A DNA stretch of 64,000 nucleotides from an uncultured Akkermansia sp. (lineage in GTDB: Bacteria > Verrucomicrobiota > Verrucomicrobiia > Verrucomicrobiales > Akkermansiaceae). The first letter of the stretch is position 1, and each line of letters opens with the position of its first letter. The DNA is taken from the NCBI GenBank assembly GCA_947588645.1, contig CANPYO010000002.1:11864-75863 (forward strand). Reading direction: 5' to 3'. The translations under genes were made by a program, and so were the position numbers. The notes under the pieces are model-generated. The model searched no databases. It saw only the letters and a program-made list of their open reading frames with translations, and was not told the DNA's origin. Of this stretch, positions 1,216-64,000 are shown piece after piece.

Positions 1216-1450
1216 CAGGGCAATCGCATTAGGAAATGCGTTTGCCTATGTACGAGGTACGATGTACGATTTGTTAATAATGTGCGCGTTGCGCAGATTT
1301 TTTCGAATCATTAATGCATGCTGAAATCCCTTTGGAGCCACCATCATGATGATCTCTTGTTGCCATGATTTTTGATGCGTATAAACAGTGATATCAGTCA
1401 ATAAAGGCATTTCCTCTGTCGATTGACTTCTCTCAAACGCGTTTGCCCTG
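1216..1450 (+). mobile_element. MITE, 235 bp, ISAs1-like ends (interior type X)
   Basis: Ends CAGGGCAATCGC and GCGTTTGCCCTG; flanked by direct repeat CTCAGGCTCG at 1206-1215 and 1451-1460. Confidence 0.8.
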
Positions 1451-8022: not shown

Positions 8023-8051
8023 TTGATAGCAAATTTTGTCAGTTTTGTCAA
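8023..8051 (-). promoter_or_regulatory. Promoter of the 883-aa gene, probably leaderless
   Basis: TTGACA (8051-8046)-17 nt-TATCAA with TGC extension; ATG 6 nt after the -10 box. Confidence 0.55.
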
Positions 8052-8069: not shown

Positions 8070-8345
8070 CAGGGCAAACGCATTAGAAAATGCGTTTGCC
8101 CATTTACGATTTACGGTTTACGATGTACAATTTATTAATAATGTGAGCATTGCGCAGATATCTTCTGGACGGAAGATGTACTCAAAAATGAGAGAGGAAC
8201 AACTTCATCTGCATCGCGGGGCGGATTGCCATTGCTGGTTTCGCGTTCGGGAACAAACGAATCATTGAACATCGTACATAGGCGGCGTTTAGCCGCCATT
8301 GTCCGTACATGGCTTTTAAAATTCCTCTCTGCATTTGCTCCGAAA
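8070..8345 (+). mobile_element. Degenerate MITE copy (left end intact, interior type Z, right end eroded)
   Basis: Begins CAGGGCAAACGCATTAGAAAATGCGTTTGCC; alignable by eye to 56447-56691 for about 180 bp; no TSD visible; right boundary approximate. Confidence 0.65.
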
Positions 8346-15954: not shown

Positions 15955-15983
15955 ATGCTAACATACGCGCCATTGCGTGTCAA
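15955..15983 (-). promoter_or_regulatory. Promoter of kdsD
   Basis: TTGACA (15983-15978)-17 nt-TAGCAT with TGT extension. Confidence 0.7.
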
Positions 15984-16001
15984 GGTACATGCTTGCCATT
16001 T

Positions 16002-16253
16002 CACGGCAAACGCATTTGGATGAAATGGAAAAGCAGAGAAAACTCTCCAAACGTTTGATCACGTGTCTGTTTCCGAATACGAAAACCGCAATGGCAGCGC
16101 ACTCTGCGATGCATATGAAGTTGTTCCTTTCTCGTTTTTGAGTACATCTGCCGTCCAGAACATATCTGCGCAACGCGCACGTTATCAATAAATCGTACAT
16201 CGTACATCGTACCTCGTACATAGGCAAACGCATTTCCTAATGCGTTTGCCCCG
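16002..16253 (-). mobile_element. MITE, 252 bp, ISAs1-like ends (interior type Z)
   Basis: Ends CACGGCAAACGC and GCGTTTGCCCCG; direct repeat CTTGCCATTT at 15992-16001 and 16254-16263; nearly identical (reverse complement) to 56447-56691. Confidence 0.85.
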
Positions 16254-16294
16254 CTTGCCATTTCACGGTTTGTAATTTGAAAATATGGCGCACC

Positions 16295-16499
16295 CCACAC
16301 GTGTCCCAATACATTGACGATTCGACATAGCGTAACAACAGATGCTTTCCACCCATCAACGTATCATCATTTCAAGAGTTCCGTTACGCACCGGTTCGGC
16401 AATCTAATCTCGCGCCAGCATTCAAATCGTAAATCGTACATAGGTGCCGTCAGGCGCCAATGGCTGCCTGTTGGGATCGCTATTTTGGACGGATGTTGG
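16295..16499 (+). repeat. P-family element, internally deleted variant
   Basis: CCACACGTGTCCCAATA joined directly to the CATAGCGTA...GGCAATCT module seen at about 12604-12690; ends TTTTGGACGGATGTTGG. Confidence 0.65.
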
Positions 16500-23200: not shown

Positions 23201-24067
23201 ATCGCGAGATACCTGATGGTGGAAGGAGGATTCAACGTGAACTCGGTGTCGGAAGATGCGTGGGCTGCCACACTGATGGGGCTTGCGAAGCGTGAGCTGG
23301 TGAGTAATACGCAGGGAACCCTGCATGCCGTGGAGCATTCGCCGAGAGAAAATGTGCTTTTTTCGCGTTTCGGGGTGTCCACAGCCGACCGGAGCATGGA
23401 TCTTCGCTCTGATTACAACGTGTTGTTGGGGGCGGCGTTCCTGCGCCCGAGTATGCAGATGGCCACGGCTTGGGGAGATGTGCGTTCGCTGACGCCGGAC
23501 TCCATTCGCGAGCTGGCGCGGGAGATTGTGAAGAAAGTGCGCGAGCGCGGTCCCTTCCTGAATATGGCGGAGTTCATCAACCGTCGTCTGGATGGCGGCT
23601 CGGATGCTTCGCTTTGTGGAGCCCTGCAAGCTGCCATAGATGCCACCCGCATCAACGATAGATTCAACCTCGATGATTTTCGAGTCAGACCGCTCTCCGG
23701 CGATTTCTACAAATTCCCCCGCGCTGAGGAGGGATCCATGTACACGGCGGCGCCGGGATACCTCATTCAGAGCGACGTGTTGGCATCGCTTGGAAATATC
23801 TTGACGGTGCGTGACGATACCTTCACGGTGCGAGCCTACGGTTGCGTGCGCAATGCTCGCCACGCCATTCTCGCCCAAGCTTGGTGCGAGGCCGTGGTGC
23901 AGAGAACCATCGACTTCGTGGATCCCTCCAATTCACCGGAAGAGGGAAGCTATGATCCCTCCAGCAGAACCTCTCGTCCCATCGATTCCCTCTCGGAGAT
24001 CAATCAATGCATGGGACGCAAACTGCGCATTGTCTCCTTCAAATGGCTCGACAGCTGGGACATATGA
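20240..24067 (+). CDS. Giant pilin/PilX-like protein resembling Verru_Chthon cassette protein A
   Basis: Class III signal-like RG|FALVASLTLMMLLGLIAV; C-terminal APGYLIQSDVLASLGNILTVRDDTFTVRAYG; 1275 aa. Confidence 0.7.
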   Translation: MKYSKNTLKTGGRARAHGRGFALVASLTLMMLLGLIAVGILAVASSQNRIAAQTILQEEARQQALIGLDAAIASMQMELGPDQRVTASSGILSAEESSPQHILGVWESWKAPLYSSSDGATIASTYNEGRSSMFRRWLISCRDLSSQRQPNSISDLGRSKPGQRICMIGEGTLGTKVNEREYVYADLITMPSSGRNETCFAWWVGGENQKANVAIADREPTSDPVEILHRTWDTPAPDFSGSSNFSFLPEDIEAPEKILTMRTLPLVDRGSAPVGMPYFFDATTFSYSLLTNVRDGGLKLDLNTLLSKRSLSGTGLQERNDQDCPIAEGDGLPSGTESKFPIGSWQTLHAFYNLWPDGSGQDRDFTSFRLIGNLFTAHTRMGGYLQSATTDKGDSITYYDERASIDGQNASGYARTPILLAFYGAYGLALSAPRSGMGGYSHGTAYAPFMLWWNPYNVQMRVGPKKLWTMSLPYRTTSIVRQDTYRNRWDRYSMLPALTPRTNPEFPGSVAQGNVLGCDWGNYFVVSQDDQSSDIIFEPGEILMFSMAEGWNNLTYANEHPGAESTICFSQPQEIPFVQGDQVGLLHNYFQSFYSFGTRFEFVHKYALETKEAYSQMVLQLIDDDDGKCSDGAYMYDTVGEVLGPKMREAFAVPHGFNGIDSSQAKGLDPDASRKTAKVNSFPGAEGLSPYVFNLGWYDYDTVSADDVTFIKDAQWDESMYNNPYYFAAVGVAPKSYNASLSEALPMFVDKNYRTRNWLHSNPAMGGGALYKPDEQQRQYHPFQLSAIKVDGERVLDTVNTKNGIYGIASVGVGGGEAVSFISVLELPVHPPFSLAGFAGMRLKPGWYSSRGNDQDAVIANMRRMQYQAGVPGVGIGNSFADPTIPADAVYAFHQTNINASTVSNRQLFSDFFDHGFIINDALWDRWFCSSVSDMPTRNGRVRARATLESFVNGEEPLPVSRYKLARTSADQDQIIERIMADDGWKRIARYLMVEGGFNVNSVSEDAWAATLMGLAKRELVSNTQGTLHAVEHSPRENVLFSRFGVSTADRSMDLRSDYNVLLGAAFLRPSMQMATAWGDVRSLTPDSIRELAREIVKKVRERGPFLNMAEFINRRLDGGSDASLCGALQAAIDATRINDRFNLDDFRVRPLSGDFYKFPRAEEGSMYTAAPGYLIQSDVLASLGNILTVRDDTFTVRAYGCVRNARHAILAQAWCEAVVQRTIDFVDPSNSPEEGSYDPSSRTSRPIDSLSEINQCMGRKLRIVSFKWLDSWDI

Positions 24068-24148
24068 TGTACGATGTACGATGTACGATGTACGATGTAC
24101 GATGTACGATGTACGATGTACGATGTACGATGTACGATGTACGATGTA
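24066..24148. repeat. Heptamer microsatellite (GATGTAC)x11 plus 6 nt
   Basis: Counted directly; begins inside the TGA stop of the 1275-aa gene. Confidence 0.97.
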
Positions 24149-24214
24149 GCAAAGCCGGGGACGCGGCTCCGCATAATTCGAAACCTTTCGAACCACCCCC
24201 AGGTTTGAATGCTC

Positions 24215-30477: not shown

Positions 30478-30922
30478 CAAGGCAAACGCATTAGAAAATG
30501 CGTTTGCCTATGTACGATGTACGATTTTCGATGTACGATTTGGAAATAGCGCGCGCCTGCGGCGCGGGGATGCTGAGCAGAAGCAAACGGAAATTTGAAA
30601 GCCGTGTGCGGATGTGGTTAGAAAGTGATGGGAATTGCAAAGCGGGAGCAGTCGCGGTGGAAGGTGGAGGTTTCACTTCCATCTCCCATGAAACGCATTA
30701 GAAAATGCGTTTGCCTATGTACGATGTACGATTTTCGATGTACGATTTGGAAATAGCGCGCGCCCGCGGCGCGGGGATGCTGAGCAGAAGCAAACGGAAA
30801 TTTGAAAGCCGTGTGCGGATGTGGTTAGAAAGTGATGGGAATTGCAAAGCGGGAGCAGTCGCGGTGGAAGGTGGAGATTTCACTTCCATCTCCCATGAAA
30901 CGCATTAGAAAATGCGTTTGCT
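30478..30922 (+). repeat. Tandem duplication of a 207-bp MITE-related unit (2 units plus a third hairpin)
   Basis: AAACGCATTAGAAAATGCGTTTG at 30484, 30691 and 30898 (period 207); the two units differ at two positions that I could see. Confidence 0.93.
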
Positions 30923-31028
30923 ATTTATGATTTTGAAATTTTTGCCGCGAAAAAATTGGGAGTTTTTATGCTCCTTTTTTCTGTTTCATATTTCATTTTA
31001 ATTGATTAAGAAGATCTCTGGAGTGCTC

Positions 31029-45534: not shown

Positions 45535-45600
45535 GTGGCGCCGTCAGGCGCCACCCTCGTACATTGTAAATGGCAAACGCATTTCCTAATGCGGCCTTTG
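45535..45600 (-). repeat. Degenerate MITE left-end fragment
   Basis: GGCAAACGCATTTCCTAATGCG hairpin plus heptamer remnants and the GCGCCGTCAGGCGCCA module also seen near 16444. Confidence 0.55.
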
Positions 45601-47847: not shown

Positions 47848-48264
47848 GTTGTACAGAGAAAATCATGAAGCAGGGATCCCCTGATCAGGCGCCAGCATAT
47901 CTCTTTTTGAAAGAGATATACACCTTCAGCGATCATACACTATTTGTATTAAGCTCTATACAATAAAACACACTTACGCAAAACACACCTGACGCGTGGC
48001 ATTTTAGTCGTTTCTAATCTTCGTAACTCACGTACCGTGAAAAAACATTTTTCTTTTCACTTGACATCTCTTTCAAAAAGAGATGAGCACTCCAGAGATC
48101 TTCTTAATCAATTAAAATGAAATATGAAACAGAAAAAAGGAGCATAAAAACTCCCAATTTTTTCGCGGCAAAAATTTCAAAATCATAAATAGCAAACGCA
48201 TTTTCTGATGCGTTTCATGGGAGATGGAAGTGAAACCTCCATCTTCCACCGCAGGCGAGCATAC

Positions 48265-56183: not shown

Positions 56184-56446
56184 GGACGATTTCGCTTCAT
56201 TTCCTCGGGAGCTGAGTTCAGTTTACCCCTTGGGCAAACTGCATGCGAATGAAGTGGGGAAGAAAACTCTCCAGGCAGTTGATTTCGTCTATTTCTGGAC
56301 ACGAATTTTCAAAATCGTAAGTGGGTGCCGACAGGCGTTACCGCCGCTTTGTAAATATGTCCGATGGTCGCGTTCTCGATTCAGTTTCCGCGTCTGCTTT
56401 GCGAAATTCGCGCGCAAGCGCGGGAGCTTCCCAAATCATAAATGGG

Positions 56447-56691
56447 CAGGGCAAACGCATTAGAAAATGCGTTTGCCTATGTACGATTTACGATGTACGA
56501 TTTATTGATAACGTGCGCGTTGCGCAGATATGTTCTGGACGGCAGATGTACTCAAAAACAAGAAAGGAACAACTTCATTTGCATCGCAGAGTGCGCTGCC
56601 ATTGCGGTTTTCGTATTCGAAAACAGACACGTGATCAAACGTTTGGAGAGTTTTCTCTGCTTTTCCATTTCATACAAATGCGTTTGCCCCG
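56447..56691 (+). mobile_element. MITE, 245 bp, ISAs1-like ends (interior type Z)
   Basis: Ends CAGGGCAAACGCATT and AATGCGTTTGCCCCG; direct repeat CATAAATGGG at 56437-56446 and 56692-56701. Confidence 0.88.
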
Positions 56692-56709
56692 CATAAATGG
56701 GCAATCTCC

Positions 56710-56738
56710 TTGACAAGGAAGAGGGGGAATGGTAGGCT
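56710..56738 (+). promoter_or_regulatory. Promoter of the aas-like gene, probably leaderless
   Basis: TTGACA-17 nt-TAGGCT with TGG extension; ATG 6 nt after the -10 box. Confidence 0.7.
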
Positions 56739-63863: not shown

Positions 63864-64000
63864 GCACACGTGCCCCAATATAATTTTCTCCGGACCCATT
63901 CAACCCATTTCCCATGCGTTTCCTGCGGACGAAAGAAGTAGGCTTTGCAGTCGTACATCCGACATCGTACATCGTTAATGGCAACCGCATTTTTCAATTT
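63864..64000. repeat. P-family element start followed by an inverted MITE left-end remnant (runs off the window)
   Basis: GCACACGTGCCCCAATA...CATTCAACCC...GCGTTTCC...GAAGTA matches 12493 and 39985; then GTACATC heptamers and GGCAACCGCATT. Confidence 0.6.

Follow-up and report, generated by a model that had tools for sequence, protein, structure and literature searches.

MITEs with ISAs1-family ends lie at a fixed distance from predicted promoters in rabbit-gut Akkermansia

Short repeats scattered through the genome of a rabbit-gut Akkermansia are very probably transposase-less MITEs with ISAs1-family termini, mobilised in trans and directed to promoters when they insert. Alignment of their ends and flanks shows the choice of target to be non-random, MITEs and ISAs1-family insertion sequences alike landing 18 bp upstream of a predicted sigma-70-type -35 box. 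The direction of ISAs1-type insertion to promoters is new here and was absent from the earlier reading of these elements from sequence.

Akkermansia is among the most studied gut symbionts. The window analysed here is a stretch of 64,000 nt, contig C2:11864-75863 of the metagenome-assembled genome (MAG) G000, which comprises 2.49 Mb in 158 contigs at 54.9% G+C, has no contig shorter than 2.5 kb and is estimated to be 96% complete. Other rabbit ('Lapin') gut Akkermansia MAGs also carry the hairpin described below, and insertion polymorphism was assessed on assembled conspecific contigs from other rabbit samples.

Three complete elements, E1, E2 and E3, lie in the window. The earlier note had described them as bearing terminal inverted repeats and perfect 10-bp flanking repeats, with an inverted copy of the terminal repeat that forms a hairpin at the left end and is followed by heptamers; all of this was found in each of the three, at the following positions:

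1216..1450, + strand: E1, complete MITE of the E1-type subfamily, 235 bp, hairpin end left
1206-1215 and 1451-1460: E1 duplication, perfect 10 bp, CTCAGGCTCG
1219-1246: hairpin of E1
16002..16253, - strand: E2, complete MITE of the E3-type subfamily, 252 bp, inverted, hairpin end right, four heptamers
15992-16001 and 16254-16263: E2 duplication, perfect 10 bp, CTTGCCATTT
16223-16250: hairpin of E2
56447..56691, + strand: E3, complete MITE of the E3-type subfamily, 245 bp
56437-56446 and 56692-56701: E3 duplication, perfect 10 bp, CATAAATGGG
56450..56477, + strand: left-end hairpin of E3, terminal repeat plus inner inverted copy without the CAG tip
56481..56501, + strand: E3 heptamers GTACGAT TTACGAT GTACGAT, adjoining the hairpin

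Each element is bounded by C(A/G)GGGCAAACGCATT and its reverse complement; the ends can be written as C(A/G)GGGCAAACGC, extending to the 15 bp CAGGGCAAACGCATT. The left-end hairpin, GGCAAACGCATT-AGAA/AGGA-AATGCGTTTGCC, has a 13-bp stem and folds at -23 kcal/mol as RNA (z = -5.2), and next to it stand 3-4 GTACGAT-type heptamers. About 105 bp at the hairpin end are common to the three elements, while the interior of E1 differs from that of E2 and E3; the nearest relative of E3 in G000 (C15:27989-28233) is 98% identical. Two other roles were considered and ruled out: the hairpin is no canonical intrinsic terminator, since a T-run follows it in neither direction, and the 38-54-codon frames inside the elements do not code for protein, being frame-shifted and truncated in many copies.

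Partial copies and isolated ends, not listed in the earlier note, occur elsewhere in the window:

8070..8258, + strand: truncated E3-type copy, hairpin end intact, right end replaced by a different heptamer-plus-hairpin module
30478..30933, + strand: tandem array of two 207-213-bp units (hairpin, heptamers and a third interior type) plus a third hairpin
45557..45593, strand not given: short remnant of an element end
48180-48215 and 63951-63993: similar short end remnants

The tandem array at 30478-30933 has a mutated CAA tip, and its unit boundaries fall inside the hairpin, which points to tandem duplication rather than to separate insertions.

Some further occurrences of these repeat modules are peculiar: (i) At 24066-24149 of the window GATGTAC, the heptamer unit of the MITEs, is repeated 12 times in a pure array with no adjoining hairpin. 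The array begins within the stop codon of a 1275-aa gene, and its length varies by ~22 bp (three units) between conspecific assemblies. (ii) Other hairpins, namely GCAACCGCATT-GGAA-AATGCGGTTGC, GGCGGCGTTTAGCCGCC and GGTGCCGTCAGGCGCC, are joined to MITE-type heptamers (window 8260-8300, 16420-16450 and 56395-56420; also L124 and L125), which suggests sister families with diverged ends; new insertions are often found inside these hairpins. (iii) In three conspecific assemblies (L148, L152 and L153) what adjoins the PEGA-domain gene (16577) is the GrpE/DnaJ region of C14 and not the SIS-domain gene that we take to be kdsD. The junction corresponds to about 16254-16431 of the window and to C14:27207, with the breakpoint at the heptamer-bearing repeat just past E2; thus, the repeat modules mark strain-level rearrangements.

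Allowing up to 2 mismatches, the window has 30 occurrences of the 12-mer core of the ends where 8.6 are expected, and 0 of 100 shuffles reach that count; the whole genome, at up to 1 mismatch, has 642 against an expectation of about 11. G000 holds 237 hairpin modules and, as near-full-length copies, 53 of E1-type and 10 of E3-type. BLAST masking with complete copies covers 84.6 kb in 724 blocks (146 of them at least 200 bp long), i.e. 3.4% of the genome. Typical copies are 220-252 bp long and carry from 0 to 8 heptamers; the tip is CAG in 102 cases, CGG in 31 and CAA in 46. For the 197 inverted end pairs of G000, mismatches between the two flanking 10-mers are bimodally distributed, with 0-1 in 32 pairs (21 of these perfect) and a peak at 7-8 in the rest. 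Since the 10-mers either agree at this level or look random, the duplications are real. Other rabbit Akkermansia MAGs contribute 21 more duplicated elements, giving 53 in all with 0-1 mismatch, at exactly 10 bp; L042 is an element of 34 bp, two ends and a loop only, yet it has a perfect 10-bp duplication. The hairpin is present in 11 of the 121 Akkermansia species sampled, at 2 to 188 copies each, and absent from the other 110; a reversed control pattern gave zero matches in the same survey. With lengths under ~600 bp, inverted ends, a target duplication, no transposase, many copies and internal frames that are not conserved, the repeats are genuine gene-less MITEs of rabbit-gut Akkermansia.

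Three loci met in this census deserve separate mention: (i) A segment of 1474 bp, C69:5949-7422, has a MITE hairpin end on one side and a MITE right end on the other, lies between perfect 10-bp flanking repeats (GCAGGCAGTC) and encloses the genome's sole RNase III gene. It came up as a candidate full-length element when ends were paired up to 5 kb apart, and was rejected as such because it holds the RNase III gene and no transposase; a composite transposon was likewise rejected, as the gene and its left neighbour stand in the same order in four sister species. (ii) Within MITE heptamer tracts at C69:5995-6065 and C8:32310-32440 sits a different small GC-rich palindromic element (...CTTCGCCCTTCGGGCAAAAGCTGCGCTTTTGTCC...). 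(iii) The 221 bp at G145:C38:138-358 are 100% identical to C28 of G000, while the true orthologue in G145 is 78% identical, so C38 of G145 is probably a mis-binned contig.

The ISAs1 family includes ISAs1 itself, IS1358 and the H-repeat elements of E. coli. Transposases of the NF033564 profile occur in 33 of the 121 sampled Akkermansia species, those of full-length elements scoring 335-363 bits against a cut-off of 70. The full-length elements (L099-L107 and L186 among them) measure 1312-1331 bp and encode transposases of 374-383 aa with DDE_Tnp_1_assoc (PF13808) and DDE_Tnp_1 (PF01609) domains, two having been checked against Pfam. Intact copies are present in 3 of the 10 MITE-bearing rabbit species (G137, G144 and G146), and degraded ones in three more. 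Their termini and those of the MITEs are identical over 15-22 bp: CAGGGCAAACGCATT stands at both ends of L101:237-1551, L102:1-1312 and L103:1285-2596, and the ends of L095, L098, L099 and L100 are one or two changes away from it. The left end of L100 and L101, CAGGGCAAACGCATTAGAAAAT, agrees with the start of E3 at 22 of 22 positions, and their other end (...ATTTGA) resembles the other end of the MITE. Perfect 10-bp duplications flank two full-length copies, L103 (GTGACTGTAT) and L105 (AACCAAGGGG). Past the terminal 15-22 bp no similarity was found between the MITE interior and the insertion sequences, and none of the full-length insertion sequences has the hairpin; the MITEs did not arise by simple deletion from the insertion-sequence copies found. 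Published descriptions of the ISAs1 family give a 14-22-bp inverted repeat that starts with CAGGG and a 10-bp direct repeat (PMC11946415, PMC6305408). Members described include ISArsp11 of Arthrobacter, of 1306 bp and with the end CAGGGCTGATGCAAAGTCG (PMC6305408), and the Francci3_2330/2941 element of Frankia (PMC11946415).

Ends, duplication and partner transposase together support placing the MITEs in the ISAs1 family as its non-autonomous members, judged on sequence; the target layout described below is also common to the MITEs and the insertion sequences. The earlier proposal of an ISAs1-like, non-autonomous family is borne out by the existence, in sister species, of ISAs1 elements with matching ends and 10-bp duplications. 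The transposase that the earlier note had suggested looking for, one with the same ends, is found in other Akkermansia species and not in G000. Its observation that the window has no transposase extends to the whole assembly: searches with the PF01609, PF13808 and NF033564 profiles, and by tblastn with eight Akkermansia ISAs1 transposases, gave neither a gene nor a remnant. A cluster of related transposases has 46 members, mostly on contigs of 1.0-2.5 kb; L186, the one contig of this cluster that was fetched, has 40x coverage and belongs to another Akkermansia species. Because such copies lie mostly on contigs below the 2.5-kb floor of the MAG, absence of the transposase from the species is not proven. 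From the lack of coding capacity in the MITEs and of a transposase in the genome we infer mobilisation in trans, which in the window's species would be the work of an ISAs1 transposase.

MITEs and insertion sequences also meet physically. In L108 (G140:C119; 1074-1340) and L186 (1578-1600) the distance between a MITE and the tip of an ISAs1 copy is exactly 10 bp, and in L108 the duplicated 10-mer, CAGGGCAAAC, is the insertion sequence's own tip sequence.

Read outward from the element, the target layout is: element tip, 10-bp duplication, 8 nt, TTGACA, 17 nt, TAnnnT. With 10 bp of duplication and a further 8 nt between the tip and the -35 box downstream of it (18 bp in all), the duplication spans about -53 to -44, counted from the transcription start. 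An alignment of 51 reconstructed empty sites, oriented so that the hairpin end is to the left, has TTG at positions 19-21 from the start of the duplication and the mirror image TG.CAA on the opposite side. At 21 of 50 sites the duplication is followed after exactly 8 nt by TTGACA (up to 1 mismatch), 8 times on the hairpin side, 13 times on the other and never on both, against a background of ~0.2 per offset. Genome-wide, 69 of 436 outer ends have TTGACA at offset 18 from the tip, where ~1.5 are expected (binomial P ~1e-89); offsets 17 and 19 have 12 and 7 ends, and other offsets ~1.5. Either end may face the promoter (37 of 189 hairpin ends, 32 of 247 other ends). At the 69 ends a -10 consensus, G.TA..aT, appears at 17-nt spacing, with T in 46, A in 54 and the final T in 48, and G two positions upstream of the -10 box in 42.

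An ORF of at least 80 aa starts within 200 nt at 61 of the 67 ends with enough flank. The median start lies 10 nt past the predicted -10 box, from which it follows that, with the promoters as predicted, many of these genes would have leaderless or nearly leaderless mRNAs. Other species' loci have 22 of 224 ends at the 18-bp offset, where the other offsets average 1.4, and full-length insertion sequences have the same layout in L103, L105, L107 (both ends), L098, L100, L110 and L186. The -35 box is already present at the empty sites and so is not brought by the element. A near-consensus -35 at the exact offset is found at only ~40-45% of duplicated sites; the remainder include nested insertions into other elements and weaker hexamers. 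At several sites the tip of a second element directly abuts the 10-mer, as expected when one promoter is hit twice.

In the window the layout holds for E3, E2 and the copy at 8070-8258, and weakly for E1:

56710..56738, + strand: predicted promoter by E3, TTGACA 56710-56715, 17 nt, TAGGCT 56733-56738
56745: start codon of the gene for a 726-aa AMP-binding-domain protein (presumably aas), beside the E3 promoter
15955..15983, - strand: predicted promoter by E2, TTGACA 15978-15983, 17 nt, TAGCAT 15955-15960, for the 322-aa SIS-domain gene (the presumed kdsD)
8046-8051, - strand: TTGACA of the predicted promoter by the 8070-8258 copy, 18 nt from the tip, followed by 17 nt and TATCAA
8016: start codon of an 883-aa gene after TATCAA
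1170..1197, - strand: weak promoter-like site by E1, TTGAAT 1192-1197, 16 nt, TAAAAT 1170-1175

The -35 box on the E2 side is also found at the orthologous spot in four sister species. At the E1 site the 10 + 8 nt layout is kept, the -35 box has two mismatches and there is no obvious gene downstream.

For seven insertions a sister species has the 10-mer in single copy between collinear flanks. C38:9556-9797 is filled in G000 with an empty counterpart in L031, and an E1-type copy upstream of kdsD, nested inside the hairpin of a variant element, is filled in G140 and empty in G137; further empty sites in sister species correspond to C28:12872, C71:6367, C1:15215, C28:7536 and C101:6500 of G000. 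Some insertions are common to G000, G137 and G140, yet empty in G144 or G145. Others are found only in G000, and the site of C71:6367 is empty in 9 of 9 matching relatives. Within the species, the E1-type copy C8:24893-25120 is present in six other conspecific assemblies and absent from four (~99.2% identity to G000), which have exactly one GTAAATGGTC. The search for empty sites with a single copy of the duplication, proposed in the earlier note, thus yielded seven in sister species and one in conspecific strains.

The pairwise identity of E1-type copies has a median of 88%, with 99.1% for the closest pair; orthologous copies diverge by 9-11% between species. The earlier suggestion of recent activity stands for the family, given the one intraspecific polymorphism and the closest pair, and fails for E1, E2 and E3 themselves, which are fixed: every conspecific contig recovered has them at identical spacing, with 99.5-100% identity. 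Empty sites for these three are not definable in the sister species, where the corresponding promoter-proximal spots are taken by other elements of that superfamily; upstream of kdsD, four species have different ISAs1-type inserts and a fifth has none. On these comparisons the family is taken to have been active before and after the split from the sister species, and at least once within the species.

One further length difference is of another kind. Five conspecific assemblies lack a 342-bp E1-type segment of G000 (C8:32135-32476), their junction showing an overlap of 38 bp. The difference looks like the product of recombination between two heptamer-hairpin repeats, not of transposition.

The position of the copies might reflect retention instead of targeting, with random intergenic insertion and survival only just upstream of promoters, where a copy is harmless or useful. 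We consider this quite improbable. It would fit the intergenic location of every surviving copy seen, the many copies that are old and fixed and have given selection time to act, and the roughly half of duplicated sites without a near-consensus -35 at the offset. But retention cannot give phasing to the single base (69 ends at 18 against 12 at 17 and 7 at 19), and the copy at C8:24893, which is polymorphic and hence young, already has the same layout, as do full-length copies in distant Akkermansia species. The stacking of elements at exactly one duplication's distance is, moreover, what repeated targeting of one promoter predicts. We give almost no credence to the idea that the repeats are REP/BIME-like palindromes spread by a Y1 transposase (RAYT or IS200/IS605-type) and not by a DDE enzyme. 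The 237 hairpins are abundant, stable, intergenic, often solitary and placed beside short tandem repeats, which would fit; the complete elements, however, have inverted termini identical to those of ISAs1 elements, 10-bp duplications and single-copy empty sites, and a perfect 10-bp duplication flanks even the 34-bp L042, which is ends and loop. Y1 transposition makes no such target duplications.

It is harder to set aside, though still doubtful, that the MITEs are immobile relics whose autonomous element has been lost, the sole intraspecific difference then being a precise loss and not a gain. A MAG estimated to be 96% complete contains no transposase or remnant of one, E1, E2 and E3 are fixed, E1-type copies agree pairwise at a median identity of only 88%, and 46 hairpins have the mutated CAA tip. 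Against this, the closest pair is 99.1% identical where orthologues differ by 9-11% between species, and C8:24893-25120 is present or absent among strains that are ~99.2% identical, with an exact empty form; DDE elements are rarely lost precisely. The MAG, moreover, is without contigs below 2.5 kb, and the related transposases are mostly on contigs of 1.0-2.5 kb, L186 being at high coverage.

Under the reading that we prefer, of MITEs mobilised in trans and directed to promoters, an ISAs1-family DDE transposase would bind the MITE ends in trans and cut the target with a 10-bp stagger, giving rise to the 10-bp duplication. It would read the promoter through bound RNA polymerase, through an upstream DNA bend near -50, or from TTGACA directly, and repeated hits on one promoter would stack elements in tandem. 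The inner end copy of the hairpin, which is without the CAG cleavage tip, may serve as an extra transposase-binding site that helps the MITEs compete, the most likely though speculative role for it. We lean slightly towards a more specific proposal, in which the ISAs1 transposase would recognise working promoters and integrate 18 bp upstream of the -35 box, the MITEs having replaced the DNA upstream of -54 at at least 60 promoters; recognition would then probably be by way of bound RNA polymerase or a DNA bend around -50.

Comparison with known systems helps to place the family. With ISAs1 elements the MITEs share the CAGGG start of a 14-22-bp inverted repeat and the 10-bp duplication, but whereas the autonomous Akkermansia elements are 1.3 kb long with one DDE transposase (PF13808 + PF01609, NF033564), the MITEs are non-coding, 220-250 bp long, and have the added inner end copy (hairpin) and the heptamers. 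Like classical MITEs (Correia of Neisseria, MITEAba12, RUP, Nezha) they are short, non-coding, numerous and intergenic, with inverted repeats and duplications, and would likewise be mobilised in trans by a resident insertion sequence. They differ from these in their ISAs1 parent, 10-bp duplication and -35-phased insertion, and in interiors that are modular, one left module joining three different interiors. Abundant intergenic hairpins are also typical of REP/BIME with RAYT, but REPs have neither inverted termini nor target duplication, and the Akkermansia elements have both.

TnGBS, ISLre2 and ISKra4 have Mutator-like transposases and insert 15-17 bp upstream of the -35 of sigma-A promoters, and those with near-symmetrical ends have promoters on either side (PMC3942029). 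The Akkermansia elements resemble them in the fixed short distance upstream of the -35, which here is 18 bp from either end, and differ in the transposase, Mutator-like (p-MULT) there and of the IS4-like DDE_Tnp_1 fold in ISAs1; the partner transposase matches DDE_Tnp_1_assoc and DDE_Tnp_1 only, which places it outside p-MULT. The likeness is thus in behaviour only, and probably convergent. Our literature search found no paper describing MITEs or promoter-directed insertion for the ISAs1 family, and none linking Akkermansia to MITEs, ISAs1 elements or promoter targeting; the published promoter-targeting cases that it found were only the TnGBS/ISLre2/ISKra4 transposases, which are unrelated to ISAs1.

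In the rabbit-associated clade the family accounts for 3.4% of the genome, breaks assemblies, adjoins dozens of promoters and marks the sites of strain-level rearrangement. Hundreds of copies in a 2.5-Mb genome can be understood from a landing site that is nearly always tolerated. If the proposed recognition of promoters is true, the kind of promoter homing seen in TnGBS/ISLre2 would have arisen a second time, independently, and such a case in ISAs1 would make the finding of promoters by transposases testable by comparison. It would also supply a small, naturally occurring means of placing DNA at a set distance upstream of promoters while leaving genes intact. For Akkermansia it would mean that each such promoter adjoins the same putative transposase-binding hairpin, a possible shared regulatory site.
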